Below are positions 29,001 through 52,974 of a stretch of DNA of 64,000 nucleotides, in pieces. Under the pieces are notes generated by a model. It was not told the origin of the DNA and made no database searches. It worked only from the letters and a program-made list of their open reading frames with translations. The stretch's first letter is position 1. Every line of letters starts with the position of its first letter. Where the stretch lies: IMG/VR virus record IMGVR_UViG_3300009506_000018, positions 3,251 through 67,250 of that record; one strand, 5' to 3'. Made by a program: the position numbers and the translations under genes. This DNA comes from a virus.

Positions 29001-32000
29001 ATGAGTTCAGGCTCAGCTCGCTGGTCACCGACTTGAAGAGCTGGCGCAGCAACTTCATTGACGGGATCCAGCTGGAACTGCAGGAGCGCGAGGATAAGAT
29101 CCAGCGTGCAGAGAGCGGCATGGATCCAGCTCCGTTCGAAAAGTCATACCACTTGCTGGCATTGAAGTGGGCCATGGCGGAGGCGACCCGCCGTGGCATC
29201 AAGAAGGTCGCTATCGCCAACGGCGAAGTGCATGGGTTCCGCTGGTCCAGCGGCAAGCTGTACGACTACGTCGAGGTGATGGCGTCTTCGACAGTCGAGG
29301 GTTTGCAGCTGTCCAACAACCGGCAGGGCTTCAGCAACCTGCCAGCAGAACCAATGCCGCAGAACACCGACTTCAGGGATACCAGCATCGCGAGGAAGTA
29401 CCAGAAGGCACAGCAGGAAGGATACGAAGGGGGCCTGTTCGAGTGGGTCAACGAGAACGTGGACAGAATCTACTGGATCACCACGTATGAAAATGGCGAG
29501 GCTATTACGAGGTTCGCCGCATCCCGTGAAGAACTGCCCCAGTGGCTCGGGCCGATGGTGGCCCAGAAGGTGATCGAGGACGAAGAGCTGGAGCGGTCGC
29601 GTACCGGCAATGATTCGACCTTCGTCGCCGTCGATGCGATCGAGGTGGCCGGGTACCGTCAGGCGACGGCGGGCGGCTACTCGTCGAAGCAGATGACTGG
29701 CAGCCGGGCGATATACAACACCATCCAGCCCAACGTGTTCACCAACAAGCTGTTGAAGAAGTACGGCGCGAAGGTGGTGTGGGGCCCGATCAAGGGCAAG
29801 CCTGATCTTTCTGAGGGAACGATTCCGTATTTCGACAGGCCGGTGAAAGATGTCGAGAAGGATATCCGCAAGAACTACCGCGTTGTCGAAGATCGCCTGA
29901 CCGAGGAAGAGCTTAACGACTACATGACCAACCTGTACGGGAAGAAGGTCATGGCCCCGGAGGACGTGGATTACGGCAAGTACCGCATTCCGCTGCACGC
30001 CGTTGGTCCGGCACATCAGGATGACGCCGTTCACCGCTCGGTGATCTGGAGAGAAATCACCGAGAAGGACGAGAATGGCGAGCTTGTCGGCAGCGGCAGG
30101 TTCAAGGAGCAGGAAGTAAACGATTACTACCTGATCTCCACCGAGCAGGAATACAACGACGAACTGGAGAAGATCAGAAAGACCCCGGTCTATGCCCTGC
30201 AAAAGCACAAGATCTTCGCCACACACGAAGGCGATAAGGCCATGTGGGCGTGGGAGCTTGACCCGGCCAACGGTTACGGTGCCAGACGCTGGCTGATGGA
30301 CAAGCGGGGCAGGACTTACAACTTCGAGCGCAGGGATATCGAGCGCCAGCTGGAGCGCATGGTCAGGACCGAGGTCGAGGAGTCCGCAAGGGCATTCGGC
30401 GCATGGACCATAGAGATCACCCCGAAGCTGAGCGAGCAGCTGCGCACGAAGGGCATGCCGCTGTTCTCCCGCGCCCCTCCCGCCGAGCAGGCCGAGGGCA
30501 TGAAGGAGCTGGACAGCAAGGTCGCCGGGGAAGGGCTTACCAGCCTGCAGAGATTCCAGAATTTCATATTCAAAGTGCTGGGGGTCGAGAACAAGAAGGC
30601 TCACATCGAGCAGGCGTTCATCGACCAGTTCGCCGGAATCCGCCATGCCATCCGCGCTTACTATGGAGACGTGGGGCTGCCGCCCGAACTGGATCCCTAC
30701 AAGCACGCGCACCTGACGACATCAACGGATTCGCAGATCTACATCGCCCTCATGGAAGGGACGCTGGAGTGGCGTGACGGTGCCACCCAGATCAAGGAAG
30801 GCAGTAGCGGCCTGCTGAAGATTCTCGAACCAGTCGGCAAGCACATCGACGAGTGGGGCAAGTTCATGGTGGCCCGCCGGGCGAAGCGCCTGTACCTCGA
30901 AGGCATCAAGGAAGGCTCCCCGGTATTCTTCAACCTGCGCCAGCACTTCGAGCGGACCCGGGCCGAGAACAGGCGTCCGCGCACGATCGAGGCCATGCGC
31001 GAGGCGGCGTGGCAGGACATCCTTTCCGGCGAGCTGGGCACTGAGATCCACGACCAGATCAAGAAGTCAGGCCGGGAACAGCTGCTGAGCCCAAAGGCGA
31101 TCGAGGCTGGCATGTGGCTGGGCGAACAGAATCCGATGTTCGAGACGGTGGCGGATCGATACGCCCAGTTCATGAGCGAGATGCTGGACTGGGCGCAGAC
31201 GGCTGGTGTCATCAATCCCGAGACTCGGCCCCTGTGGGAGAACGCGGACTACATCCCGTTCTATCGCCTCAGGGACAACCAGCTGGGGGCTGGTTTCAGC
31301 GAGCAGTCCGGCACGGTGCCGCCCACCCTGACAGGTACCTCCGCCATGGCCCGGCAGTTCCTTACCCGGGGGCTGGCGAATCAGCGATCGCCGATCCGTA
31401 AGCTGCGCGGCGGCACGAGCATGCTCGGCAATCCGCTGGAAAATATCCTGATCAACCTGAACATGCTGATGCAGACCACCATGCGTAACAACGCGGCGGT
31501 GCTCACCATCGATTCACTCAATGGTTCCGGCATGGTCACGAAGGCGCAGGGCTACGAGTTCCTCGAAGAGAAGACGATCGCCGAGGGCGACCTGAAGCGC
31601 AGGCTGCGGGCGGTCGGCATTGATACCGAAGACATGGATCAGGCTGCTCTCGCGGCACTGAAGAAGATGTGGGTGGTGGATACGCCGAAGGATCCGAACA
31701 TCATCACCATCCTGAGGAACGGCAAGAAAGAATACTGGCACGTCCATGACGAGCTGCTGTTCCGTTCGCTGACGGCAATCAACCAGCGCCACTTCCAGAG
31801 TTTCTTCGGGTCCATGGCGATGGCCCCGTTCCGATGGACGAAGCGCCTGCTGACCACGATGATCACGCTGGACCCTGCATTCATGGGTGCCAACTGGATG
31901 CGAGACGGGCCGATGGCGTTCGTCAACAGCCGGTACGCTAAGATGCTGCGACCCGATCGCTCACTGCAGGGCATCGGCGAGGCGCTGTTCCTGTCGAAAG

Positions 32001-33664
32001 AAATGAAATCGATGATGGCTGCGGGCGGCGCTTTCTACTCCGGCTACATCAATTCCGGCGATCCGGCAGCCATCAGCAAGGCGATGAAACGCGCCATCAG
32101 GCGCAGCGGCGTTCGCGGCAAGATCCTGAACACACCGTTCCGGCTGGCGCATGCCTACAACGACGTCGCTGCCGCCATGGAGAATTCGAACCGCATCGCC
32201 TATGGCTACAAGCCAGCTCTCGATACCACTGGCTCGGTCATCGAGGCGGTGTTCGAATCGAAAGACCTGATGAACTTCGCGAAGCACGGCGACCTGCCGA
32301 TCGTTTCGTTCTTCATCCAGACCGTGCCGTTCCTCAATGCTCGCCTGCAGGGCCTGTATCGCTACGGCCAGCGGCAGATGGGCGAGGGTGTGAAGGCTGC
32401 CGGGGTGACCCTGTTGAAGGCCATGATCATTACCATGGCGACGCTCGCGCTCTACTGGTACAACCGTGACGACGAGCGATACAAGCGGCTGACTCAGGAG
32501 GACAAGGATCTCTACTGGCACTTCTGGATCAACGATATGCACTATCGTCAGCCGAAGCCGTTCGAGGTCGGAGCCCTGTACGGAACCATTCCAGAGCGCA
32601 TGTGGGAATGGATCGAGTCCGATGCTGACGATGCCACGAAGGTCGCCATGGACAGGCTGGGCTGGATCATCGGGGAGATGTTCAACTTCGACCTCAGGCA
32701 GATCCAGCTGGTGAATCCTCTGGTGGAGGCGGCACGTAACTACGACAGCTTCTTCAAGGGCCCGATCGTGCCCTATTACCTTGAGAAAGTGGATCCGCGC
32801 TATCAGTACACGGAGACGACCAGCCCGACTGCCCGGGAGATCTCTGAGATCATGCCGTACGACTGGCCGATGCTGCCGGACTTCATCGAATCTCCGATCA
32901 TGATCGACCACATCCTGCGCGGGTATTTCGGCACACTGGGCAGCTATACCCTGCTGACCATAGACACCATGCTGCGATCCTCGGGCAAGTACCCGTCAGC
33001 GCCGAAGATGAGGGCGGACCAGCTGCCCGTCATGAAGCGATTCTGGCGCGGCTACGAGCCGCCAGTACGGTATGAGAAGGACAGCACCGGGCGCACCGTG
33101 ATCGTTCTTCCTGAGGCCACCGAGGGCGCGACGTTCCCGCGCAGGACCGCATGGGAGTCGATGCTGTATGACTTCCGACGGGCGGCAGTGCAGGTCGAGG
33201 AGACGATGCGTGACATCGAAGAGGGCGAGCGCGTGCCGGATACTCAGGAGGAAGGCTATCTGGCCCGGCGTGCCCGCTACTTCAAGGGGCTGACCAACGA
33301 GCAGGTACTCGACGCGGTCGAGGACGTGAAGGAAGCCTCGGCTGAAATCAGGGAGATCCGTAAAGAGATCGACGAGATCATGCGGGCCCCGTTGCGGCCA
33401 GAAGAAAAGCTCCGCCAGATGGAGCAGAAGTATCGCGAGATCGAGCAGGCGGCGCTGGACTGGTATGTCAACCGCCCGGGATCCGGGTTCAAGCAGCAAG
33501 ACAAGGGCGTGAAGCCGGAGGAGCTGCCGCCGCTGATCATGATGGAAGAAGACTGGAAGCGCCGCAAAAGCATGACCAGTACCGAAGTCATCAGCTGGTT
33601 GCAGAAAGATTACCCGGTCACCGCCGAGCTGGTGGCTGACATGCGGGCAGGAGGGATGAAGTGA
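20030..33664 (+). CDS. Giant polyvalent ejected protein (SLT transglycosylase, ART-like, two zincin motifs, GNAT-like, LPD38-like C-terminus)
   Basis: 4544 aa; AVRHAESG..AIGTMQTMP..AYNAGPG (SLT); HEIAH at 24968; HEIVGH at 26258; LVDWYKRNGF (GNAT); EIQSDWHQ at 28046. Confidence 0.8.
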   Translation: MATPAGPWTKYQRPQNPDPRLFEAVRHAESGADPNAVSPAGAIGTMQTMPETLRDPGYGVEPLPEHQWDDSTALQKKGEEYLSAMYRKYGGDIEAALIAYNAGPGNADKWLKSNRDYSVLPKRQETEPYVQKVMARYEAPQEAGPWSQHQPEGPWSKYQQQPPPQESQFNPEGAINPETGRPWTQEEVDATALDQKDFLAKYPGSRVQQEMDQRFAASQQGLTQSGEAAGPWAKYQPSGEAQPEDESWLGQFTKTLGARIFSGTLGVSSMAWDTPEAAHRYLRGAYSKLKDSGVPDWLNPFGAPTLIADKIANGHDFGKFHAAGASDMADRIDQSVKFLDETLPAFKDAVAGTEEAQRAWDRFLESDGDFEILWNAAKDPEVLGAAIGQGLPTLLAAYLANRTGHGLPFMGWMEAMDSAQNAQQFEEMTGEQISDGEFAAATASAGAINAVLEKTGLDAILGKLPGGKSLVGRFLLALGTEGGTEFIQEVVQNLSALIYDEEERDQLNEAIDSGDWEAAAKIVTRGGFPAFLGGAGLGAAGGGLGYWADRIRAAETGSEPPPRDDIIERADEVSVSEAEEAGIEVRDVSNDTLQRVATGDPLTDEEMFNLQRAGLARVLNAGEGRMALTPEGKRQLAGEGRSRAQALDQRIRQSRTPTLRDLTDAELRQRVRTIGDIEGLIKRAPPEMDLAKKVTGKVFYADPEATGLPRLMKNRSEGMLSVTISPQNPLQLPAEAFNMLEPEEIEFARREGYDAIISDNGEAMALDPGILRYVRGSGDDGVDKYGFTKEAKNDFEALADAQRGKPEMAMLRAARVVGGGVMQVMTEHLGDLTHRMSERTANENPDQGLEFVWPKVRRGISFLTNPYGFKREFEENLRSNFRHWQEEPRYRPRWFNKLVETTGKEPTFEEYRKLVDRALKEYADEHRQLPVYNEAQKLARDIAVALGEQRFDLVTSKLERLREMMVNDEGKPDIEKWVSYARRHPSITSPSLSRTRRRRRAPSGEWYQDRYPTLGERPVGAPPGIKDIRAVGRFVTKLRNRVRRGEGKDGGGRNLIPPDAWTWYEDAGSLIRKLVKGDMQDMEKMVRLLALMSPNTSVETNVTKWITGIYRAYKEGRLSDLTQIPGALMGNEDLISALEADELTINTRGVGPKLLNFYRNLWDATFEQDRYPDAVTIDLWIAREFGFTNPKKVIDTQYEFARKVLVDATADYNEEYGTSWKPRQFQAALWVLARGGKRGSFAELIRGSSANAAFETIPSESFNEGRVLARLTDEERVKYTEEMLDVLGTEDGRNELLDAMGLPLYVTQQMRGAYMGTTAPGALMEAPLLKAAEGYDRETADTIAMALQYIYKQDSVIWFRPVKSEAKEPPSPNEEGYDQAFAVRFDKALTSEDIGLLAAMLEQYFPGQGFTVTEPDEITLINLDGIDPKTGEAPATPRKKAANNAKWLDGIRSWLSEISTPFGIIGADTSPMTVESSGYRRTIHDWEADEKGSRLLDEIQARRPGLESRLDDWRGRAEQVTKRWVGSAKTASRPASAPVPVDRLDHGGRAQVEVYGRFGSLRKEPTTDRLKIYNLRPAIENPQGTTQKLLDDYGFEVEVFSFDPERFRLPELKKRGYEQGVVWIYDPEVKRGSFNDAEYTRAWRVSHEIAHAITEQLMEERYGPSFRYGRLGRIALLPRGKPPRQTLVEQRPLTLKEAQRAVEWEDLAFRVQRMLLEQVGISINEEQFTQEYNTNLSDAMYRSLTGEFGDPGEYGFMPNAARRVPVRDVLRALEKTEEQLAKVAGRKPTEGIDLDSWERIPESELRRVMDQRRADNQSPTTGESLDDMRISVNEDGTLRLKQPRRMSRKIKVSTPEYGKNVEAMVKEWMEGTEANPFGAPERIIEWKAAAQIRPADKDTVSIESIRAFEMHKGDGGMALRRIVELADKHGVTLQLSPVPFGEGGLTRKQLVDWYKRNGFRLRPEAPFVYERKPRKATRFSKKRTNEGKGLGKAGVQNAVRQVYRRMNSAPRVVVVDTVEDLPHEVYLKLLEEHQRDPKKNALGRTQGLYDIHGAFDTVYLIGANINTNEEAIDVLLHEIVGHYGTQGVLSVQQWERVMDRIYNTFPDLVKDAAERNDLNMADLAERRIASEEVIAYYTGQALHRKSIPQKMKMIIEDLVEMFRVWLNRALGKGHGITKRQIRGIIAEGWNFVHRPGGYKHQAVRLHKNHRYSMYSPYLYSALHDWLGSVPEIKSGGRTKAQWEQEIAAAVKKGLIKQEELDWSELEILLENPTINDIYRHWSGQRDDKIDEVFHLYPDKDVEAAYRRKDEIDIERREILDEKLPHTIWPGRTDMYHRKSIIKAMVDGTVEISRAGIETYDQKYSWQDYTQGLNDTDAAYNSAKRLVKRLREMEEEYEDVRDMIQRYGARPANKIPVAVVQNWVAENGVKIDVTGPTSNVDWDDAATFDANYPDNEDHPEYSDLDEFIEEKASEELDELFSGDLLAKMEDSSWRGIAEAMFDNEMELEEGEDYEEALLEYASHNEHLIDEDYTENEIKSQMRVDEWETEYKEGLIAEYNWDFENVEFRVQGNRHNDEFDLYIDGSEYASSIAGDDIDYYIREWGQEQANQPGTRWSQYTLPGGTDYEETLLRWDRKENLFTASAHWDDISNIIVHLRHDIRETPDGERVFFIDEIQSDWHQELRDMGRRDPKLAQRLKEEIVEVHQAYNKNIRPQGEKAILDALQTMSVKDILDFIIYGETHEQWDNNPIDEFVVSKPSAFNYRKQWLEQAVGKNPRNQFKELSGLDSKHSGMLGVVSDKMLDMLGTFANADLLARLTDTQLAPAVGKFDAATGAIIANALMGKFPYIKEGSNGRKMIAYPKVNIDESGPDHSYVWHNNDPAPDWRKGEFKDAVITPQDLQQIFEPGRAQAIKDALIKTMLRELKIADETYDPSHPEFDQQNRLATGAMAEALYRYLDKVSSTGQGPLFDMAYGADKLPASKLAEEFTERGHEFRLSSLVTDLKSWRSNFIDGIQLELQEREDKIQRAESGMDPAPFEKSYHLLALKWAMAEATRRGIKKVAIANGEVHGFRWSSGKLYDYVEVMASSTVEGLQLSNNRQGFSNLPAEPMPQNTDFRDTSIARKYQKAQQEGYEGGLFEWVNENVDRIYWITTYENGEAITRFAASREELPQWLGPMVAQKVIEDEELERSRTGNDSTFVAVDAIEVAGYRQATAGGYSSKQMTGSRAIYNTIQPNVFTNKLLKKYGAKVVWGPIKGKPDLSEGTIPYFDRPVKDVEKDIRKNYRVVEDRLTEEELNDYMTNLYGKKVMAPEDVDYGKYRIPLHAVGPAHQDDAVHRSVIWREITEKDENGELVGSGRFKEQEVNDYYLISTEQEYNDELEKIRKTPVYALQKHKIFATHEGDKAMWAWELDPANGYGARRWLMDKRGRTYNFERRDIERQLERMVRTEVEESARAFGAWTIEITPKLSEQLRTKGMPLFSRAPPAEQAEGMKELDSKVAGEGLTSLQRFQNFIFKVLGVENKKAHIEQAFIDQFAGIRHAIRAYYGDVGLPPELDPYKHAHLTTSTDSQIYIALMEGTLEWRDGATQIKEGSSGLLKILEPVGKHIDEWGKFMVARRAKRLYLEGIKEGSPVFFNLRQHFERTRAENRRPRTIEAMREAAWQDILSGELGTEIHDQIKKSGREQLLSPKAIEAGMWLGEQNPMFETVADRYAQFMSEMLDWAQTAGVINPETRPLWENADYIPFYRLRDNQLGAGFSEQSGTVPPTLTGTSAMARQFLTRGLANQRSPIRKLRGGTSMLGNPLENILINLNMLMQTTMRNNAAVLTIDSLNGSGMVTKAQGYEFLEEKTIAEGDLKRRLRAVGIDTEDMDQAALAALKKMWVVDTPKDPNIITILRNGKKEYWHVHDELLFRSLTAINQRHFQSFFGSMAMAPFRWTKRLLTTMITLDPAFMGANWMRDGPMAFVNSRYAKMLRPDRSLQGIGEALFLSKEMKSMMAAGGAFYSGYINSGDPAAISKAMKRAIRRSGVRGKILNTPFRLAHAYNDVAAAMENSNRIAYGYKPALDTTGSVIEAVFESKDLMNFAKHGDLPIVSFFIQTVPFLNARLQGLYRYGQRQMGEGVKAAGVTLLKAMIITMATLALYWYNRDDERYKRLTQEDKDLYWHFWINDMHYRQPKPFEVGALYGTIPERMWEWIESDADDATKVAMDRLGWIIGEMFNFDLRQIQLVNPLVEAARNYDSFFKGPIVPYYLEKVDPRYQYTETTSPTAREISEIMPYDWPMLPDFIESPIMIDHILRGYFGTLGSYTLLTIDTMLRSSGKYPSAPKMRADQLPVMKRFWRGYEPPVRYEKDSTGRTVIVLPEATEGATFPRRTAWESMLYDFRRAAVQVEETMRDIEEGERVPDTQEEGYLARRARYFKGLTNEQVLDAVEDVKEASAEIREIRKEIDEIMRAPLRPEEKLRQMEQKYREIEQAALDWYVNRPGSGFKQQDKGVKPEELPPLIMMEEDWKRRKSMTSTEVISWLQKDYPVTAELVADMRAGGMK
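24480..24686 (+). CDS. Overprinted 68-aa basic protein nested in the giant gene (alternative frame)
   Basis: CAGGAGAACC RBS 4 nt before ATG; TATAAT at 24418-24423; G/C-ending codons in nested frame while host frame turns A/T-ending; hairpin after stop. Confidence 0.65.
   Translation: MTGKLTKKDLDYLMKYKPDARALNRGLTIGVGGPNKSRSGGSVAQRRHQGQLPHQYPWIDSTTEDERK
24702..24725 (+). other. 10-bp hairpin with GCGA tetraloop after nested ORF
   Basis: TCGGTTCCTT-GCGA-AAGGAACCGA; no U tract. Confidence 0.6.
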
Positions 33665-34167: not shown

Positions 34168-34682
34168 GCTTCGGAAAGAAGGCACTGTCGGTACTGAAGA
34201 AGCTGGCTCCGACAGTCGCCACTGCGGTGGGCGGTCCGTTCGGTGGCATGGCGGCTGCAGTGCTGGGCGAAGTACTGGGCGTGGACGGGGACTCTGTCGA
34301 AGAGGCAATCCTGTCCGGTAACCCGGAGGTACTGATGAAGGTGAAGGAAGCCGACCAGACCTTCAAGGTGAAGATGCGCGAGCTGGGGATCCGCGAGGAA
34401 GAGCTGCACCAGAGGGACCGGGCCAGCGCCCGGGAGATGGCGGCGAAGCTGGGCATGTGGCCGCAAGTGGTGCTGTCCATCATCTACACGATGGGCTACT
34501 TCGTGATGCTCTACCTGCTGGTGTCTGGCGAGTGGCATCCGCCGCCGGATTCGCAAGAGCTGGTCGCTGGCCTCATCGGCGTCCTGACTGCTGGCGTCGT
34601 CAAGGTCATGGACTTCTGGTTCGGCTCCAGCATCGGCAGCAAGCAGAAGACGCAGGTCATGGCTGCGCAGGAGGTACCGTAA
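34164..34682 (+). CDS. Holin (3TM/GTA-holin-like)
   Basis: 172 aa; APTVATAVGGPFGG, DRASARE, two C-terminal TM helices, DFWFGSSIGSK; follows endolysin. Confidence 0.75.
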   Translation: MSFGKKALSVLKKLAPTVATAVGGPFGGMAAAVLGEVLGVDGDSVEEAILSGNPEVLMKVKEADQTFKVKMRELGIREEELHQRDRASAREMAAKLGMWPQVVLSIIYTMGYFVMLYLLVSGEWHPPPDSQELVAGLIGVLTAGVVKVMDFWFGSSIGSKQKTQVMAAQEVP

Positions 34683-35280: not shown

Positions 35281-35547
35281 TCAGTTGTCCACGGACAGGA
35301 AGCGCCGGGCAGCCTTCGTCATGCCATGGGCCTTGCCGTACCGCTTGAAGATCCGCTTCGCCCGGGCCAGCGGATAGGGCTTGTCGCGGTAGGTAGCCGG
35401 GGCCATGAAGCGGCGCTCGTTTTTCGGGACTGGCCGGGGGTGCAGCTTGCCATCCATAGTCAGGACGTGGAGCTTCGTCCGCTTCTCCTCGACCAGCACC
35501 GCCTTCGTGCCGATCTGCTGCGGGGCCTTGTAGAGCAGGACTTCCAT
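35281..35547 (-). CDS. Basic hypothetical protein
   Basis: 88 aa MEVLLYKAPQ..., K/R-rich. Confidence 0.6.
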   Translation of the reverse strand: MEVLLYKAPQQIGTKAVLVEEKRTKLHVLTMDGKLHPRPVPKNERRFMAPATYRDKPYPLARAKRIFKRYGKAHGMTKAARRFLSVDN

Positions 35548-35548
35548 G

Positions 35549-35788
35549 TCACCACCCCCTGAGCTGGCGGAGCCGGGCACGGGCCGCGCTGATGGCGGCG
35601 ATCCGGTGAGAGTAGGTGCCGACCGGGTCAGGATCGTCGCTGCGCCTGCCTTCCCGGGAGTCGGCCTCGACGAAGAAGATCGGGAAGCTGGGGACGATGC
35701 GGTCGATGTAGCCAACGGTCCACACCCAGCGCCCGGCGTTCGGTCCCCGGAGGATCCGGCGGACTTCGTAGGTCAGCTTGTTTTGCAT
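35549..35788 (-). CDS. Hypothetical protein
   Basis: 79 aa MQNKLTYEV...; AGGAGAACC RBS. Confidence 0.65.
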   Translation of the reverse strand: MQNKLTYEVRRILRGPNAGRWVWTVGYIDRIVPSFPIFFVEADSREGRRSDDPDPVGTYSHRIAAISAARARLRQLRGW

Positions 35789-35821
35789 GGCGGTTCTCCT
35801 TCGCATGCGGGTTGATAATGT

Positions 35822-35932
35822 GTGGGAAAACAGTGATTTCCCACGACATCATTATAACACACAATAGATTTCGGCCTTAGATCAATGACTTACAAGGCTG
35901 CTTTCATATAGAAATCAGCCGTAAGTTATTGA
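35822..35932 (-). promoter_or_regulatory. Extended -10 promoter flanked by palindromes
   Basis: TGTTATAAT on minus (35851-35859); GTGGGAAA-N7-TTTCCCAC (35822-35844); 51-bp imperfect palindrome 35882-35932. Confidence 0.7.
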
Positions 35933-35960
35933 GCCTGCGTGACCTTGCGCGGATTTGCGC

Positions 35961-35990
35961 AAAAAAAAGCCCCCGGAATTACCGGGGGCT
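35961..35990 (-). terminator. Rho-independent terminator
   Basis: AGCCCCCGG/CCGGGGGCT stem, 8 T on minus strand. Confidence 0.85.
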
Positions 35991-36120
35991 AGTCTCACTG
36001 CCGGTCACCCGGCCCCATCAAGGCTTTGCAATCCAATCCGGGGCCGACGCCGTTTGCACCTATGGAGGGGAGAACCGGGTGCATTCCAAAAGTAGCACCT
36101 AAATGCCCCCGTACCAACCC

Positions 36121-36405
36121 TCATGTGTCGCCATAGTCACCGTGCCAGCCGGGGCGGCGGTACTTCTCCCATGGCCGACCATAGTGGTAGACCTCCGGGT
36201 TCCTTTCGCACCAGCGCGATTCTCCGGCCATCTCAGCCGCGTTCTCGCATTGGCGCGGGGTGGTGTAGTAGCACTCGTAGATGTCGCCGTCTGTCGCACA
36301 CCACGGCTCTTCGCCGACGAACAAAGTCTCTGCCCTCAGGTTAACCCACAGGGCGCAGCCCAGTCCGATCGCGACGATCGCAATCCACCATTGTCTCTGG
36401 TTCAT
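36121..36405 (-). CDS. Secreted Cys-rich protein, DUF3551-like
   Basis: 94 aa; signal/TM then WC...YEC.YTT..QC...C..NP spacing. Confidence 0.65.
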   Translation of the reverse strand: MNQRQWWIAIVAIGLGCALWVNLRAETLFVGEEPWCATDGDIYECYYTTPRQCENAAEMAGESRWCERNPEVYHYGRPWEKYRRPGWHGDYGDT

Positions 36406-36818
36406 ATCGTCACCTCGCATGGCTTGAAATCGCTCTTCGGAATCAGCAGCTGGGGCGGGCCGAACCTGACCGTGTGGTCGTAGCGCAGCCCAGACTGGAC
36501 CGGCCACGCCTTGTGATAGAGCGCAAACGAGTCGTCCGCGTCTTCCTCGTAGTGAGCCATGAACCAGACGTGCGGGACCAGCAGCCTCACCGACCAGTCG
36601 CGCAGCAGGTAAAAGGACATGGCGTCGATCAGGTAGTGCCCCTTGTCCTCGACGATCTCCTGCCCCGAGTACAGGTTGGCGATGCTGACCACCTTGTCGT
36701 TGCGGGTCAGGGTCGCATGGAAAGGGCGGAAGGTTTCCGCCACCTTCGTCAGGCTCGTGTTCCAGACGCTGCACTTTCCCCACTTGCCGACGGCATCCCA
36801 GATCTTGTTGTCAGTCAT
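36402..36818 (-). CDS. Hypothetical protein
   Basis: 138 aa MTDNKIWD..., ATGA overlaps at both ends. Confidence 0.6.
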   Translation of the reverse strand: MTDNKIWDAVGKWGKCSVWNTSLTKVAETFRPFHATLTRNDKVVSIANLYSGQEIVEDKGHYLIDAMSFYLLRDWSVRLLVPHVWFMAHYEEDADDSFALYHKAWPVQSGLRYDHTVRFGPPQLLIPKSDFKPCEVTI

Positions 36819-37038
36819 CGTCCCGGTCCTCCGTGAAGTATCGGTGAACCTGCACCGTCTCGCCTTCAGGAAGCATCGGCAGCGGGTCGCCCACCGGGAG
36901 CAAAGACCCTCTGTAGGATGCGACAGTCTGGATCCCCGGGGCATCGTTGGGGAGTGACGCCGGAGCAGCCAATAAGTACGCAGAACCCAGCCAGTCGCGA
37001 GCGATCGAACGTCGGCGGGCCAGCGTCTTCTCCTGCAT
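36811..37038 (-). CDS. Hypothetical protein, start uncertain
   Basis: Frame ends overlapping the next ATG; may begin upstream of MQEKTL. Confidence 0.4.
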   Translation of the reverse strand: MQEKTLARRRSIARDWLGSAYLLAAPASLPNDAPGIQTVASYRGSLLPVGDPLPMLPEGETVQVHRYFTEDRDDD

Positions 37039-37090
37039 GCGGGCGTCGTCGCCCCGGAGATCCAGATACGGTGGGAGCGTCAGGCATCGC

Positions 37091-37513
37091 TCAGAAGGGG
37101 ATGTCGTCGTCGAGCTGCGGCTCTTTGGGCGCATTGCTCTGCCCTCCCTGTTGCGGGCGCTGGGCCGGGCGGCTGTCGTTGCGCGGGCTAAGGTTCTCCC
37201 ATAGCGCCACCCGCACCTTCGTGGTGTACCTGTCGTTGCCGTCGCGGTCCTGCCACTTGTCGGTCTGCAGCTTGCCCTCGACGTACACGAGATTGCCCTT
37301 CGAAAGCCATTCTCCGGCCCTCTCAGCCGAGTTTCCCCAGACCTCGCACCGATGCCATTCGGTGCGCTCCTGAAGCTCCCCAGTGTTCTTGTCCTTCCAT
37401 TTCTCAGTGGTCGCCACCGAGAAGTTTGCGACGGCGGTGCCGCCCTGCGTGTATCGGACCTCTGGATCCTGCCCGAGGTGGCCGATCAACTGTAGTTTCT
37501 GCATGCTAGGCAT
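37091..37513 (-). CDS. ssb: Single-stranded DNA-binding protein
   Basis: [42 protein letters not shown]; acidic DDDIPF tail. Confidence 0.97.
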
Positions 37514-37709
37514 CGTGGCTTCCTTTATCACTCCGCAGTGGAGTGGTTGTCATGTTCATTCTGACCTCGGGCACATCAAGGGCGCGAAACTGCACGTCCA
37601 CGCCCTCCGCGAGAAGCGTCTGGTGGGCCCTTGTCTTGCGCCGAGATCTCCCGCTGTCTGTGGTGTCATCGAGGATCTCGACGACCGTTACCCATAGCCT
37701 CCTTCTCAT
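37506..37709 (-). CDS. Hypothetical protein
   Basis: 67 aa, overlaps neighbours at both ends. Confidence 0.5.
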
Positions 37710-38260
37710 GCTGCCGCCATGGCCGTTCTGACCGGCTCCAGCCAGTGATCTGTTTCTCGCTGCATCTTCTCCAGCAGGGAGCCGGGCCCGTCCAGCCAGC
37801 GCACATCGAAGGGGTTCCTGCGATGCCGTTGGCTGGCCCGGGCCACGGGCTTGTCCTCCATGATCTGCTCGGCCACCTGCCGATGCAGCCTGCGTGACAC
37901 CAATTCCAGCACGTGCTCTCCGGCCAGCTCCATTTCCTCGTCGCTCATCTCGTACCGAGCGTGATAGACCTTCTGCTGGGTGCGCTCCGAATAGGTCGCG
38001 ATCCAGCGGGTCCGCTGCGACTCGTAGTCTCGATGGCGGCGGATCTCGATGCCCTTGTAGGTGTACAGATCGTGATCCACCTGCTTCACCCTGTTGTCCG
38101 GGCCTCCGCTGACGATGTAACTACCGCTCATGCTGGCCGGGTTGATGTAGATTGTCCCGCCAGTGGTAGTTCCAGTGGTGGCGATGGTTGAGGTGGTGGT
38201 CGAAGTGTCCGACCAGATCCCGCCCATCCCCATGTTCGCGTAGCTGCTGATTGGTGCCAT
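37706..38260 (-). CDS. Hypothetical protein
   Basis: 184 aa, T-rich N-terminus, coupled to neighbours. Confidence 0.55.
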   Translation of the reverse strand: MAPISSYANMGMGGIWSDTSTTTSTIATTGTTTGGTIYINPASMSGSYIVSGGPDNRVKQVDHDLYTYKGIEIRRHRDYESQRTRWIATYSERTQQKVYHARYEMSDEEMELAGEHVLELVSRRLHRQVAEQIMEDKPVARASQRHRRNPFDVRWLDGPGSLLEKMQRETDHWLEPVRTAMAAA

Positions 38261-38263
38261 GGA

Positions 38264-38683
38264 TTACTTCCTCGTCTGTCGCTTCTCGGTGATCTCCATG
38301 TTCACGTTGGGCAGCCGTTCGAGGATTTCCTTGTACATGCCACGGATCTCGTCGCCGCGCTTCTCCAGCTGCTTCTCCAGCTTGTCGCGGTACTGGTCCT
38401 TGACCTTCGCGATCTCGTTCTGCGTCTTGCGATCCTCCTCGACGCAGCGGCGATCGAACTGCAGATCCAGCTTCTCCATGTGCTGGCGGATCTGGTGCTG
38501 GATGACCTCCTCCTCGATCTGCTTCTGCTTCTTCACCTCGGCCAGCTCACCCTTCGTCTCGCGCAGCTTGTCTTTCAGGTCAGCCCGCTCATCGCGCAGC
38601 TTGTCCACATCGGCCTGCAGCTCATCGATCCGCGCCAGCAATCTGGTGCGGCGTTGCTTCAAAAACGGAATGCTCAGGTTCAC
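38264..38683 (-). CDS. Coiled-coil hypothetical protein
   Basis: 139 aa heptad-rich K/E/L sequence. Confidence 0.65.
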   Translation of the reverse strand: MNLSIPFLKQRRTRLLARIDELQADVDKLRDERADLKDKLRETKGELAEVKKQKQIEEEVIQHQIRQHMEKLDLQFDRRCVEEDRKTQNEIAKVKDQYRDKLEKQLEKRGDEIRGMYKEILERLPNVNMEITEKRQTRK

Positions 38684-39486
38684 TTCTGGTTCTCCTTCAG
38701 TTCGGCCCTTCGGTCAGCGTAGGCGTCGCGTGCCTTCGCCCTGTCGCTCTCTGACAGCCTCTTCGCACGGTCCCCCGCCTTCAGCAGGTCAGCCATGGTC
38801 GCGGCGTCCTTGATATCCTCCAGCACGTCTTCGAGGCTGGTGTCTTCCTCGACGATCTTCGGCTCGGCCTGCTCGACGGGATCCTTGTGCTCCGGCACGT
38901 CTTGCGGCGGCACTGGCGAATCATAGTCCAGCACCTCCTCGGCCATGCCGACGCCCTTGAGGATGTCAGCATAGACGTCACGCAGGCAGAACCCCCGGGC
39001 CCGCATCTGCAGCATGCGCTGCGGATCCTTGCGCCAGATCGGCTTACCCAGCAGCCCGTTGGCCCGGGCCCGCTCCATGGAGTAGGAGCGCACCACGGGC
39101 TCCGGCTCGCCCCGGCGCTTCGTCTCACAGTGCGCCACGTTACCGTCCTCGGACAGCCATTCCCTGACGTACTCGCAGACCTTGCTGCCCCGGACCACGG
39201 CGAGCAACCCGTCGCCCCACAGGGTCGGGCGGCATTCGTCGTTCTTCTCGGAGTAGATCGGTGCGATGAACTGGATCGCCTGAAACGGCGGCAGCCCCAG
39301 CTCGGCTCCCATCTGGATGGCGACGAAGGCGTCGTTGACGTTGCCCCGGTAGTACTTCGGCACCATCGAGGATTTCGCACACACCTGCGCGAGCTTGTGG
39401 ATCAGCGCGTAGCGGCGCTCGGCCTCGGTGATGTCGTCGATGTTGGACAGGGTCAGCTCGTCTGGATTCTGGTTCATGTCAGCCAT
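38680..39486 (-). CDS. RecT/Bet-like ssDNA-annealing recombinase
   Basis: MVPKYYRG..AIQMGAELGL.P..A..RPTLWGD..W..DPQRML..RARGFCLRD; adjacent to YqaJ and SSB. Confidence 0.8.
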   Translation of the reverse strand: MADMNQNPDELTLSNIDDITEAERRYALIHKLAQVCAKSSMVPKYYRGNVNDAFVAIQMGAELGLPPFQAIQFIAPIYSEKNDECRPTLWGDGLLAVVRGSKVCEYVREWLSEDGNVAHCETKRRGEPEPVVRSYSMERARANGLLGKPIWRKDPQRMLQMRARGFCLRDVYADILKGVGMAEEVLDYDSPVPPQDVPEHKDPVEQAEPKIVEEDTSLEDVLEDIKDAATMADLLKAGDRAKRLSESDRAKARDAYADRRAELKENQK

Positions 39487-40450
39487 TGGACACCTCCTCG
39501 GAAGCCACGCTGCCGACCAGCAGATTCCCCACCGGCTGGACATCGCCGCTGTCAATCGCCTCCTGCGCGATCTTCGGCACGCGGGTCGTGTGCGAGAAGG
39601 TCATGTAGGTGGTGTCGGCCACGGTGTAGCCCTTGCGGGCGACTTCCTTGCGAGTGAAGCACGAGCCGTCCGGCATCAGCGCCACCGAGGCCTCGCCCAT
39701 CAGCATCTGGATGCGAGCCTTGCAACCCTCCGCCACGGCGCTGTAAGTCTTCACCACTTCCTTCGCGTCGTTCATGACGTCGAGATACTTCTGCGCGACC
39801 TCCGGCAGCTCGACCACGGAACCATTGGTCCCGGGATACATGCGCTGCAGGGTCTTGATCAGCTCGCTGTGTTCCCACGTTGGCTGGGGCGGTACCCGGG
39901 CCTCGACCCGGTCCCAGAATTCTTCCTCGGCCTCGATCAGCCGGGCAATGAATTCGTCGTCCCTGCCGATCTCGTAGATCCTCAGGTCGTTGCCGCCGAC
40001 CAGACAGGCGACATCCCACTGATCAAACTCGCGGACCTTCACGTAGTGCTGGACCTGAGCGTAGACGTAGGGCGGGATCTCATTGGTGCCTGACAGGCCC
40101 CAGCCGATACCGAAGGCCGAGGTCTTGCACTCCAGCCCGCGCTTCTCGCCCACGACCTTGCGGTCAAGGTGAGCGATCATGAACGGGTGATCCTTGTGGC
40201 GGTAGGAGCGGTTGTCGCGCTGGACCTTGCGCCCGGTCTTCTCCACGTACGCCTGCGCGACGGGCTCTTCGAGCAGATGGCCCCAGCGGATCTGCGGCTG
40301 GCCCGAGATGTCCTCCGGTTCCAGCTCGCCGATCTTTTCGAGGTAGAGGGTGTACGGTTCCTGAAATGGGCTGACCCTGAGGATAGCCCCGGCATCTGAA
40401 CCGCCGATGCCGGAGAGCCGAAACTCTCGTTGCTTGTCGGTGATCGCCAT
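39479..40450 (-). CDS. YqaJ-family (lambda-exonuclease-like) nuclease
   Basis: GIGGSDAGAI, WGHLLE, AHLDR...LECKT, YAQVQHY motifs. Confidence 0.93.
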   Translation of the reverse strand: MAITDKQREFRLSGIGGSDAGAILRVSPFQEPYTLYLEKIGELEPEDISGQPQIRWGHLLEEPVAQAYVEKTGRKVQRDNRSYRHKDHPFMIAHLDRKVVGEKRGLECKTSAFGIGWGLSGTNEIPPYVYAQVQHYVKVREFDQWDVACLVGGNDLRIYEIGRDDEFIARLIEAEEEFWDRVEARVPPQPTWEHSELIKTLQRMYPGTNGSVVELPEVAQKYLDVMNDAKEVVKTYSAVAEGCKARIQMLMGEASVALMPDGSCFTRKEVARKGYTVADTTYMTFSHTTRVPKIAQEAIDSGDVQPVGNLLVGSVASEEVSNG

Positions 40451-40494
40451 GCGATTCTCCTGTGTGGCCCGGACACCGCGCCCGGGGTCACTCA

Positions 40495-40542
40495 AATCCT
40501 ACACCCGGGGCCCCATCCGGGCAACCACTTTCTGGTAGGATT
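40495..40542. promoter_or_regulatory. Divergent overlapping promoters
   Basis: Minus: TTGCCC-N17-TAGGAT (40524-40496); plus: TGG-TAGGAT extended -10 (40533-40541); AATCCTAC/GTAGGATT inverted repeat. Confidence 0.6.
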
Positions 40543-40575
40543 CACCCACCGCCTACACCCCTTCAGGAGACGACG

Positions 40576-40827
40576 ATGTCAGAGCCGATCATGCCCGATC
40601 AGATCCCGCCCCATCCCAACCCGGTCCGCCGGTTTCGCGAGTGTCTGCGGATGACGCGGGAGCAGTTCGCCGAGTTGATCGGTGTGTCCCACGAAACCCT
40701 CAGGGTCTGGGAAAAGCGCGTCCCCTCCATCCCCCGGCCAGCCGCCATGAGTAAGCTGATCCACGTGGCCGAGCGCAACGGTTACCCACTGACGGCTGAT
40801 GAGATCAAGGAATTCGCCCGGCGCTGA
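40576..40827 (+). CDS. XRE/Cro-like HTH regulator
   Basis: 83 aa; RECLRMTREQFAELIGVSHETLRVWE HTH; AGGAG SD. Confidence 0.85.
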   Translation: MSEPIMPDQIPPHPNPVRRFRECLRMTREQFAELIGVSHETLRVWEKRVPSIPRPAAMSKLIHVAERNGYPLTADEIKEFARR

Positions 40828-40910
40828 AAAGTGTCGCTGCGCGCAGAGACATATCTTCTGCGAGCAGACGCTATATTTTTCTTCCCCATTGTGTGGTAGC
40901 GTCGGACCCG

Positions 40911-41030
40911 CTACTAGGAGTTACTGGGAGTTACTAGGAGTCTCCTAGTAAACGGGCAGTTTACTGGGAGTTACTAGGAAACACGCAGTAACACATAGGA
41001 GTTTTGTCTATACAGATACAGATACAGATA
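40911..41030. repeat. Iteron cluster, putative replication origin
   Basis: TTACT(A/G)GGAG-like 10-mers at 40911, 40921, 40931, 40961, 40971 plus inverted copy 40942-40951; (TACAGA)3 at 41011-41030. Confidence 0.75.
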
Positions 41031-41098
41031 GAAGATAAGACCTAGCCAGAGAGGTAAGTAGGTAGGTCTTAAGATCTAGAACAGACTAGGAGAACCGC

Positions 41099-41497
41099 AT
41101 GGCTTACGGAAAAGTGTGGGACACCATGTTCGATGGTTCCCTCGTGATGGCTGGCTGGGAGGGGGTCGTCACGTTCATGGTGATGATCGTGCTGGCGGAC
41201 AAGGACGGCTTCGTTGACATGATGCCCGTTGCCATCAGCAACCGAACTACCATTCCGCTCAAGGTGATTGAGACAGGGATCGCCCAGCTGGAGGCAGAGG
41301 ATCCGCACAGCAGGGATGCAGACCACAACGGTCGTCGCATAGAACGGCTGGACGAGCACCGGGAGTGGGGCTGGCGCATTCTCAACTACGAGAAGTATCG
41401 CAACGCCCGGGACGACGCCGCCCTGAAGGCGCACTGGCGCGAGCAGTACAAGAAGCGCAAGGCGAAGCAGCAGAGAGTGAAGCGGAAGGCGTCATGA
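41099..41497 (+). CDS. Phage replication initiator (O-like N-terminal domain only)
   Basis: YGKVWDTMFDGSL..VLADKDGFVDM..DPHSR..GRRI..WGWRILNYEKYR pattern; ends after basic helix. Confidence 0.7.
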   Translation: MAYGKVWDTMFDGSLVMAGWEGVVTFMVMIVLADKDGFVDMMPVAISNRTTIPLKVIETGIAQLEAEDPHSRDADHNGRRIERLDEHREWGWRILNYEKYRNARDDAALKAHWREQYKKRKAKQQRVKRKAS

Positions 41498-49918: not shown

Positions 49919-50464
49919 TTACACCTCCGCCTGATATACGTAGTCGGTCATATCGGAGACGGCGCTTTCGAGGTGGCTTTCCAGCTGCTCCTGCCAGTCG
50001 TTGTGGTCGGACTGGAATTCATCCGTGCCTTCCTCGCCATCGTCGTAGTGATTGCGATCAGGTTCCTCTTCCGCGTACTCATCGATTGACTCGATGTCGC
50101 TGATGGCGGACTCGACCGCATCGATGCGCTCCTGCAGAAGCTCTCCGGTCGGGGAGTACTGCAGCTCGTCGGGCATGTTGTCGAGGCTCGACTGCGTCTC
50201 GTCCCTGAGATCCTCCAGCTGGCTGACGACCTCGTCGCGCAGCTCGATCAGCTCATCGTTGGTTTCGACATTGCTGTCCTCGATGAACTCGCCGATGCTG
50301 CGCACCGTGCCGTAGTAAGCCGACTGGGTCAGCTGGCTCCCGCGTGGCGGGGTCTTCGAGTATCGCTTACCGCCGTAGCGGAACTTCCACCAGTAGTAGG
50401 GCTCGCCCGGCTGGGCGACTGGGTTGGCCTTGCGGGCCTTCTTCACGTAATGCACTCGTGGCAT
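49919..50464 (-). CDS. Bipartite basic-N/acidic-C protein
   Basis: 181 aa; YYWWKFRYGGKRYSKT then D/E-rich helices; GGAGAACC RBS. Confidence 0.7.
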   Translation of the reverse strand: MPRVHYVKKARKANPVAQPGEPYYWWKFRYGGKRYSKTPPRGSQLTQSAYYGTVRSIGEFIEDSNVETNDELIELRDEVVSQLEDLRDETQSSLDNMPDELQYSPTGELLQERIDAVESAISDIESIDEYAEEEPDRNHYDDGEEGTDEFQSDHNDWQEQLESHLESAVSDMTDYVYQAEV

Positions 50465-50482
50465 GTTGGTTCTCCTAAGTTG

Positions 50483-50550
50483 TGGCTTGCCATCATCGGG
50501 CCGGAGGGAGCCACCCTTCCGACGACCCCGGGAGTCCCGGGGTTTCGGCA
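50483..50550 (-). ncRNA. Type II hammerhead ribozyme HHR2 (variant core)
   Basis: UGCC-GAAA-CCCCGGG/CCCGGGG-UC cleavage, stem I, CCGAUGA-U-GGCA; loop UGGCU pairs with 3' AGCCA. Confidence 0.75.
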
Positions 50551-51021
50551 TCAGGCCGTCTCTGCGGCCTCAGGGCCGTAGATCTGGTAGTCATCGAGGG
50601 TATCCCCGTACTGGCGCTCCAGCGTCTCTACCACCTCGTCTCTGGAGGCGGCATCGATCTGGATGGTGCGTCGCTTGCAGCAGCCCTCGGGTACGCCGTC
50701 CTGATCCCTGAGCCAGAGGTCGCACTTGAAGCTGGTCAGGAAGTTGCCAGCGGCGGAGCCATAGACGCCCCGATACCAGTCGGCCTCGCCGAAGATGTCC
50801 ACGTCGTTGACGCGGCACACGACCCAGCCGAAGCTGGACCAGCGGTCCTTCGTCGGGGCCCAGTGGCGCTGCTCGCCGTAGTGGACCAGCCTGACCTCAC
50901 GGCGCTGGCCGACGTCCATGTTGGCGACGTCGTCCGGGCCGAACGGGAAGCACTGGTCGTAGCGCAGCATGTCGAGCGGGAACGAGCCGCGCCCGGTGAC
51001 GGTGAAAGTGACGGTGTTCAT
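50551..51021 (-). CDS. Conserved phage hypothetical protein
   Basis: 156 aa; FTVTGRGSFPLDMLRYDQCFP motif. Confidence 0.65.
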   Translation of the reverse strand: MNTVTFTVTGRGSFPLDMLRYDQCFPFGPDDVANMDVGQRREVRLVHYGEQRHWAPTKDRWSSFGWVVCRVNDVDIFGEADWYRGVYGSAAGNFLTSFKCDLWLRDQDGVPEGCCKRRTIQIDAASRDEVVETLERQYGDTLDDYQIYGPEAAETA

Positions 51022-52001: not shown

Positions 52002-52889
52002 TTACAGTCCAAACTTCGATCGGCAGATCGGGCCGATGCCCAGCTCGATCGACACTCCGTTGGTCAGCTCGCGACCGCAGCAGCAGCACTGCCCGGTCCG
52101 CTGACCCTGCACCTTGACGGCGTTGGCCGGATCCTTGTCGATCTCGACCAGCGTCTCGACCACCTCGGGCGGGCAGTTCCGCGCCGGGGTGAACTTGCCA
52201 TCGGTGTCGATGCGCCCGAACCAGCGGTTGTCCGGGTAGCGCCGACCGTCGGTGATGTTGACCGAGCCCGGGTTGCGGGAGCGGCCACCGGCCAGCTGCA
52301 GAACGATGCGTGCGCCTGACGAATCCACCAGCCGCAGCTTCGGGTACTTCAGGCCGTTCTCCCGGGCCGTCTGCAGGTAGCGCAGGCAGTTCGGCAGCTC
52401 GGCCACTGGCTGGGGCTGGCTGGCCTTGTGCTCGGCATCCTTCGCGAGGATCTTCTCGACCGCCGCCTGCTGGCGCTCGGTGAGGGATCCGTACTGGTGG
52501 ATGGCGGAGTGCAGGCTGGCAGCGAACTCGGAGCGGTGCTCGTTGGCCTTCAGCCACGCGGTCACCTGCGGGTGGGCCTCCATGTACGCCTGCGCCGCGT
52601 TCGCCTTCTCAGCGGCCTGACGTTCGCTCCTGCGGGCAGCCTGCTCGCGACGCTTCGCCCGGGCAGCCACACCGGCAGCATCGGTGCGGATCTTCTGGTT
52701 GCTCTTGCCAGTGCCGTTGCAGCTGAAGCAGCGCCCGGCGGACCAGTTGCCGCGCCAGACACCGGAACCGCCGCACTTGCGACAGGGGGCGTTGGCGTAC
52801 TCGGCGGCGTGCTCAAGGAAGTCCTTGTGCTGCGCCTCGCCCTCGGGGGCGGTGATGATCTCGTCGAGATCGGTGAAGTCAATGCTCAT
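52002..52889 (-). CDS. DnaJ-type Zn finger plus DUF6011-like protein
   Basis: CRKCGGSG, CFSCNGTG; C-terminal CCCCGRELTNGVSIELGIGPIC. Confidence 0.7.
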   Translation of the reverse strand: MSIDFTDLDEIITAPEGEAQHKDFLEHAAEYANAPCRKCGGSGVWRGNWSAGRCFSCNGTGKSNQKIRTDAAGVAARAKRREQAARRSERQAAEKANAAQAYMEAHPQVTAWLKANEHRSEFAASLHSAIHQYGSLTERQQAAVEKILAKDAEHKASQPQPVAELPNCLRYLQTARENGLKYPKLRLVDSSGARIVLQLAGGRSRNPGSVNITDGRRYPDNRWFGRIDTDGKFTPARNCPPEVVETLVEIDKDPANAVKVQGQRTGQCCCCGRELTNGVSIELGIGPICRSKFGL

Positions 52890-52906
52890 GTGGTTCTCCT
52901 TCAGTG

Positions 52907-52972
52907 GGCCTGTCTCATCAGTGCCGGTAGGCCATCTCCGGCAGACCCCGCACCTCCGGGCGGGGTTTCGAC
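52907..52972 (-). ncRNA. Type II hammerhead ribozyme HHR1 (canonical core)
   Basis: GUC-GAAA-CCCCGC/GCGGGG-UC cleavage, UGCCGG/CCGGCA stem I, CUGAUGA-GAC; loop GGCCU pairs with 3' AGGCC. Confidence 0.88.
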
Positions 52973-52974
52973 TG

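Follow-up and report, generated by a model that had tools for sequence, protein, structure and literature searches.

Position 4 of the hammerhead ribozyme core is taught as an invariant U. An element on the minus strand of a phage genome, here called HHR2, carries a C at this position and an extra U after A9, raising the questions of whether it is a working ribozyme and what such a ribozyme would do between two phage genes. We analyzed it in a window of 64,000 nucleotides (positions 3,251 to 67,250 of IMG/VR record IMGVR_UViG_3300009506_000018). The source record is a 72,059-bp virus with direct terminal repeats and was judged complete. In a search of sequencing runs, the DNA runs containing the phage were marine sediment metagenomes, and no RNA run containing it was found. 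The original prediction had read 50483-50550 on the minus strand as a hammerhead with a CCGAUGA core and one extra U. This reading matches the sequence letter for letter, and all three stems and the pseudoknot are in place (Table 1). A 24-kb Logan contig from the probable source sample, assembled independently, is identical over HHR2, and C4 and the extra U are thus not errors of the IMG assembly; Logan contigs of related samples contain no variation within the element.

Table 1 Features of the HHR2 locus, in window coordinates
Feature	Position	Strand	Basis or remark
HHR2, complete type II hammerhead including 3' tail	50480..50550	-	Rfam RF02276 and model R2
Stem II, 5' strand GCC (11.3-11.1)	50547..50549	-	pairs with GGC 50489-50491
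Core G12 A13 A14	50544..50546	-	sequence; invariant in alignment A2
Stem III hairpin, 8 bp from A15.1-U16.1, loop ACU	50525..50543	-	50543-50536 paired with 50532-50525
Predicted cleavage site, C17 (50524) / G1.1 (50523)	50523..50524	-	from the hammerhead alignment
Stem I hairpin, 9 bp, bulged A50518, loop UGGCU (50509-50513)	50500..50523	-	50523-50514 paired with 50508-50500
Core C3-A9, CCGAUGA, with C4 at 50498 instead of the consensus U	50493..50499	-	sequence
Extra U between A9 and G10.1	50492	-	sequence; consensus position of model R2
3' tail AGCCA, paired with loop I UGGCU (50509-50513) in the pseudoknot	50483..50487	-	covariation
Upstream gene, 156 aa, phrog_11674, function unassigned	50551..51021	-	UGA stop 50553-50551 adjoins the ribozyme
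Downstream gene, 181 aa, phrog_4068, function unassigned	49919..50464	-	RBS AGGAGA 50476-50471, AUG 50464-50462
HHR1, canonical type II hammerhead	52904..52973	-	Rfam 49.3 bits, over cut-off

The stems of HHR2 follow each other in the order II-III-I-II, and loops cap stems I and III, whereas stem II is open; this is the arrangement of a type II hammerhead. The minimum-energy fold recovers all three stems. C3, G5, A6, G8, A9, G12, A13, A14, the A15.1-U16.1 pair, H17, and the G10.1-C11.1 pair all occupy their aligned positions, so that every catalytic position is present except U4, and the textbook CUGAUGA is broken by this one C. Alternative registers, in which stem I or stem II is shifted to regain a canonical core, were tried and rejected, as none gives U4 together with paired 10.1-11.1.

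HHR2 fills most of an 86-nt gap on the minus strand between the UGA stop of the 156-aa gene and the AUG of the 181-aa gene, and the AGGAGA ribosome binding site (RBS) begins six bases 3' of it, followed by the start codon. The N-terminus of the 181-aa protein is kept across many phages. A second ribozyme of the same operon, HHR1, lies 2.35 kb upstream. None of the genes near the ribozyme could be assigned a function by searches of Pfam and PHROGs, and a DNA search of deposited phages found no relative of the locus, its sole match being 95 nt inside a DUF6011 gene. This gene (52002-52889, minus strand) is the first after HHR1 and has the DUF6011 domain at its end; the stretch of about 95 nt is about 80% identical to many Pseudomonas phages and is the region's only DNA match to deposited phages. 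Elsewhere in the window, 20030-33664 on the plus strand is a single 4544-aa ORF with an N-terminal transglycosylase-like domain and a C-terminus that matches large phage proteins of unassigned function; its probable product is a giant protein of the virion interior or of ejection.

On its own, the fold of HHR2 does not stand out from background (z-score -1.5, not significant by itself), as would be expected if GC-rich intergenic DNA resembled a hammerhead by chance. We regard such a coincidence as vanishingly improbable, because HHR2 lies in its short gap exactly between stop codon and RBS, because a covariance model built independently of this window finds it with an E-value of 2.4e-15, and because an orthologous ribozyme is present in a syntenic phage. 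The Rfam model Hammerhead_II (RF02276) aligns to HHR2 end to end (model positions 1-66) at 33.1 bits, with an E-value of 0.007 for the 64-kb window and 1.9e-6 for the genome. This score falls below the Rfam gathering cut-off of 37 bits; at the gathering threshold HHR1 alone is reported, and HHR2 surfaces only when E-value thresholds are used.

For the independent model, termed R2, a covariance search of 60 loci with the C4 plus extra-U core yielded 84 hammerheads, 69 of them distinct, all from other phages and none from this window. Its consensus reads AGCCGAAAC ... CCGAUGAUGGCAGGcCA. R2 scores HHR2 at 67.4 bits and the canonical HHR1 lower, at 58.5 bits, and no core position of HHR2, C4 and the extra U included, departs from this consensus. 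HHR2 thereby falls within a phage subclass defined by GCC-GAAA ... CCGANGA-U-GGC plus a pseudoknot. Two other matches were set aside: an R2 match at 34561-34626 (12.4 bits), which has no stems, lies inside a long ORF, and was rejected as chance, and, outside the window, a Hammerhead_II match of 18.8 bits on the plus strand at G000:C1:67299-67360, which has GUAA for GAAA and is probably not a ribozyme.

The closest comparison comes from G009, a 71.7-kb phage contig (loci L012, L044) that is syntenic over the whole region, its genes before HHR1, between the ribozymes, and after HHR2 having 39-86% amino-acid identity to those of the window. G009 has hammerheads at both junctions, scoring 52.5 bits (HHR1 ortholog) and 33.9 bits (HHR2 ortholog). 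At the HHR2 junction, the ribozymes are 90% identical in sequence, whereas the flanking proteins are merely 39-52% identical; the ortholog of the 156-aa gene (52%), whose 3' end can hardly be aligned between the two phages, is followed by the orthologous ribozyme. In G009 this ribozyme has a fully canonical core and still remains under the 37-bit cut-off, indicating that the shortfall of HHR2 arises mainly from its stems and loops and not from its core.

The differences between the two orthologs are few. Two loop III bases differ, and in stem I two bases differ and the bulge has moved by one position with 9 bp kept. In the core and stem II, four changes separate HHR2 from the G009 ribozyme: U4 is replaced by C, the U is added, and the A10.2-U11.2 pair has become G-C by compensatory change. 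An inactive relic, i.e., a hammerhead that lost its activity recently and survives only as an RNA structure or through overlap with the translation signals of the next gene, could account for a core that is off consensus and a score under the Rfam cut-off, and the RBS and N-terminus downstream are also highly conserved, so that conservation here might in part be unrelated to the ribozyme. We nevertheless find a relic improbable: all stems and the pseudoknot of HHR2 are intact, and the four core and stem II differences, including a compensated pair, jointly turn one recognized subclass into another. The abundance of the C4 core, described below, likewise speaks against decay.

Other relatives are less informative at this site. 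In more distant ones found through the downstream protein (L004-L011, L059-L092), there is mostly no hammerhead at this junction; the upstream gene mostly runs straight to the RBS, and these loci are unusable for covariation here. In a related phage from another sample of the study (50.7-kb Logan contig, run X2), the sequence corresponding to window position 50476 is joined to that at 52907, so that the ortholog of gene 49919-50464 appears to be immediately preceded by the 3' half of an HHR1-like hammerhead. At that junction, either the block of four genes that separates the two ribozymes is absent or replaced, or a different hammerhead allele is present.

The original prediction had also proposed that the helices and the pseudoknot covary, and we find genuine covariation both in alignment A2, which comprises 15 phage hammerheads, and in the 69 distinct members of the class. 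In A2, 98.5% of pairs are formed and 17 of 22 covary; stem III pairs vary in concert across these phage hammerheads, the pseudoknot helix reaches 97.3% pairing, both sides having changed in four of its five pairs, and the middle pair of stem II is C-G in HHR2 vs U-A in the 14 other ribozymes, a compensatory difference. In the class set (84 hammerheads, 69 distinct), 94.1% of cells are paired and 14 of 17 pairs have double-sided changes, a level of covariation reached by none of 500 shuffles. Restricting the comparison to the 52 unique sequences with C4 and the extra U gives 93.7% of cells paired, with three to six pair types at each stem I position and at five of seven stem III positions; invariant are the two core-adjacent stem III pairs and all stem II pairs, and C4 and the extra U are likewise fixed. 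The statement that every helix differs from HHR1 went too far, as the first six stem III pairs are identical in both ribozymes; HHR2 and HHR1 differ in stem I, the pseudoknot, and one stem II pair.

How common is this core? We scanned IMG/VR for patterns combining CCGAUGA with either of two stem II sequences. With stem II GUC/GAC, at least 118 stretches were found; among the matches listed, 76 of 87 unique sequences are well formed, in at least 104 loci, and the pseudoknot spans 4 bp or more in 75 of the well-formed sequences. When stem II was set to GCC/GGC and an inserted base was allowed, there were at least 94 well-formed loci, and 85 of the 107 unique sequences among the matches listed are well formed. 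In these 85, again among the matches listed, the inserted base is U in 51, A in one, C or G in none, and absent in 33. The search for the same variant in phage contigs suggested by the original prediction thus returned, among the matches listed, 51 unique sequences with the exact HHR2 core CCGAUGA-U-GGC. The core had been taken for a peculiar variant, but a large natural subclass of phage hammerheads has C4 and a U inserted after A9 as its consensus. The exact core also occurs in well-formed hammerheads of metagenome-assembled bacterial genomes (Ruminococcus, Lachnospiraceae, Oscillospiraceae, and some Proteobacteria), although most raw matches in this very large collection are due to chance.

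The two deviations behave differently. The extra U accompanies the stem II type: neighbors of C4 plus extra-U ribozymes in the same loci are mostly CUGAUGA with the same extra U, and we conclude that this base is normal for hammerheads with a GCC/GGC stem II. Two type II hammerheads with canonical U4 and an extra U after A9 lie at L077:5184-5319 and L077:3326-3398; one of the two has a 77-nt insertion in stem III. As for C4, control scans of IMG/VR, run to completion in the same context as the first scan (stem II GUC/GAC), recovered 11 stretches with any other base in place of G5, merely two of them well formed, and seven with A or G in place of U4, none well formed. C4 is thus tolerated specifically, as opposed to being one decay product among many. 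This scarcity of disabling core mutants beside abundant C4 is a further argument against HHR2 being a relic. Judged by its sequence, HHR2 is a regular member of a widespread phage C4/extra-U subclass with the core C-C-G-A-N-G-A-U followed by a GGC/GCC stem II. The class-wide enrichment of C4 shows tolerance of this base and should not be taken as proof of activity for the HHR2 copy itself.

The earlier expectation that strict motif searches miss the element holds, HHR2 as well as seven of 15 same-core ribozymes of other phages being under the Rfam cut-off. The other eight of these 15 (14 loci) pass it, as do all four of their U4 neighbors, and the C4/extra-U class is therefore partly visible to standard annotation.

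C4 and U4 also alternate at short evolutionary range. In one family of 55-60 kb phages, C4 outnumbers U4 by 74 to 44 among the matches listed (118 stretches), with an identical 31-nt context on both sides of position 4. This polymorphic family (loci L094-L205 and L469-L494) comes mostly from metagenome 3300045988, and its stem III covaries freely. Canonical and C4 copies coexist within one operon both in the window (one of each) and in the phage G013, where two copies of a 12-copy hammerhead array have C4 (about 10 + 2). A 55-kb phage with terminal repeats (locus L016, IMGVR_UViG_3300040801_000321, 35374-41298, one strand) has about 12 type II hammerheads in 6 kb, in nearly every gap between small genes, and C4 is present in two of them. 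The Rfam-based genome search overlooked one, which only a custom model revealed.

This coexistence is in favor of a tuned ribozyme, an idea raised in the original prediction. Owing to C4 alone or to C4 plus the extra U, HHR2 would be slower than HHR1 or would have another dependence on Mg2+ or pH, and selection would maintain this difference to set the timing or stoichiometry of two processing events. Changes of U4 lower activity in other scaffolds (PMC3088659, PMC9901934), and Perreault et al. raised the possibility that phage variants with slower cleavage are responsive to conditions (PMC3088659). However, close relatives have C4 in some cases and U4 in others, at one and the same junction or within one and the same context, which looks near-neutral and fits near-neutrality at least as well as tuning, as far as sequence comparison can tell; moreover, according to PMC3705267, a U at the inserted position raised the rate in the one system tested. 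We therefore hold tuning to be possible but on the doubtful side, and favor the view of HHR2 as an ordinary, working member of its class.

Type II hammerheads with a pseudoknot between loop I and the 3' tail, often clustered around prophage genes, were described in 2011 (Perreault et al., PMC3088659). HHR2 resembles them in its open stem II, pseudoknot, GUC triplet, and location between co-directional phage genes, and it resembles their clusters in having a second copy 2.35 kb away so that a short block of genes is flanked; it differs in its C at position 4, the extra U after A9, and a score of 33.1 bits against the cut-off of 37. The same study found the hammerhead core to match the consensus "almost without exception" (PMC3088659). 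Both deviations that had made the core of HHR2 seem odd have been described individually (PMC3088659, PMC3705267). U4C is a known natural variant that, as cited in PMC3088659, "considerably decreases activity in vitro" yet leaves enough of it in vivo for the viroid to be infectious (Ambros and Flores 1998). HHR2 has the same single core substitution; the viroid case, in that account, concerns an RNA replicon and is treated as a rare exception, whereas HHR2 belongs to the mRNA of a DNA phage, and C4 is a frequent allele in numerous phage lineages. Given this frequent natural allele and an active U4C variant on record, U4 is better regarded as the consensus letter than as a strict requirement. 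In comprehensive mutagenesis of a type III hammerhead, U-turn mutants had low activity (PMC9901934).

An extra base between A9 and G10.1 is natural in the CChMVd (+) hammerhead (De la Pena and Flores 2001, as cited in PMC3705267), and Penelope-element hammerheads have a conserved base between positions 9 and 10.1 (PMC4209133). HHR2 shares with both an additional nucleotide at the same position. The CChMVd (+) insert is an extra A10, yet in the CChMVd study U was the best tolerated base at this site and raised the rate 3-4 fold (PMC3705267); this preference matches that of the phage class (at least 51 U to 1 A to 0 C or G among the matches listed). The CChMVd hammerhead (viroid, type III) and the Penelope hammerhead (eukaryotic retroelement, minimal) belong to other hosts and topologies and are not combined with C4. 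In the searchable literature, we found no account of how frequent C4 is in phages, either by itself or combined with the extra U.

Altogether, these results support a model in which HHR2 is probably a functional type II hammerhead that splits a polycistronic phage mRNA between two genes. With its intact fold and its class membership, HHR2 is very probably active, and it would most likely cleave itself at 50524/50523, just upstream of the next RBS. The placement of the class agrees: of 70 unique phage hammerheads, 52 are preceded by a stop codon at a distance of up to 13 nt and 50 are followed within 30 nt by a Shine-Dalgarno sequence plus a start, which identifies the class as an intercistronic processing element, in agreement with the proposal of Perreault et al. 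(PMC3088659).

In our model, HHR2 would be transcribed within a minus-strand polycistronic mRNA of small phage genes. Because the UGA stop codon abuts the ribozyme, a ribosome terminating there would cover stem II and the GAAA strand, and folding would wait for its release. Thereafter, the three stems may fold and be locked by the pseudoknot between loop I and the 3' tail, and the RNA would cut itself between C17 and G1.1, so that genes 50551-51021 and 49919-50464 would end up on separate mRNAs. The 3' end of the upstream piece would be the stem III hairpin, carrying a 2',3'-cyclic phosphate, while the downstream piece would start with a 5'-OH and have the stem I/pseudoknot fold first, six bases before the RBS. 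We infer that the two pieces could then differ in stability and translation.

The two ribozymes of the window might also be considered as a pair. Stem II is GUC/GAC in HHR1 (52970-52972 / 52911-52913) and GCC/GGC in HHR2 (50547-50549 / 50489-50491), and a chimeric hammerhead formed from both ends of an excised 2.4-kb RNA would be expected to have a C-A mismatch in stem II. Such an end-to-end HHR1/HHR2 chimera is the requirement for circularization; in G009, both ribozymes have GUC/GAC.

For this phage alone, the finding is of small significance, adding a further intercistronic hammerhead to a type known since 2011. With the same stems and pseudoknot but alternative cores, the window and G009 form a natural near-isogenic pair that is well suited to measuring the effect of C4 and the extra U. 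About half of the C4 copies are lost by consensus-based searches and the Rfam cut-off, and it is in pseudoknot-stabilized phage hammerheads that C4 is very common and specifically tolerated, other core changes being almost absent. It is tempting to speculate, although we consider it unlikely, that C4, often with the extra U and a GCC/GGC stem II, constitutes a widespread second type of hammerhead core with distinct catalysis and that phages toggle between U4 and C4. If so, its dependence on pH or Mg2+ would be shifted, e.g., because C is without the N3-H donor of the U-turn, and toggling between U4 and C4 would tune operon processing in phages.
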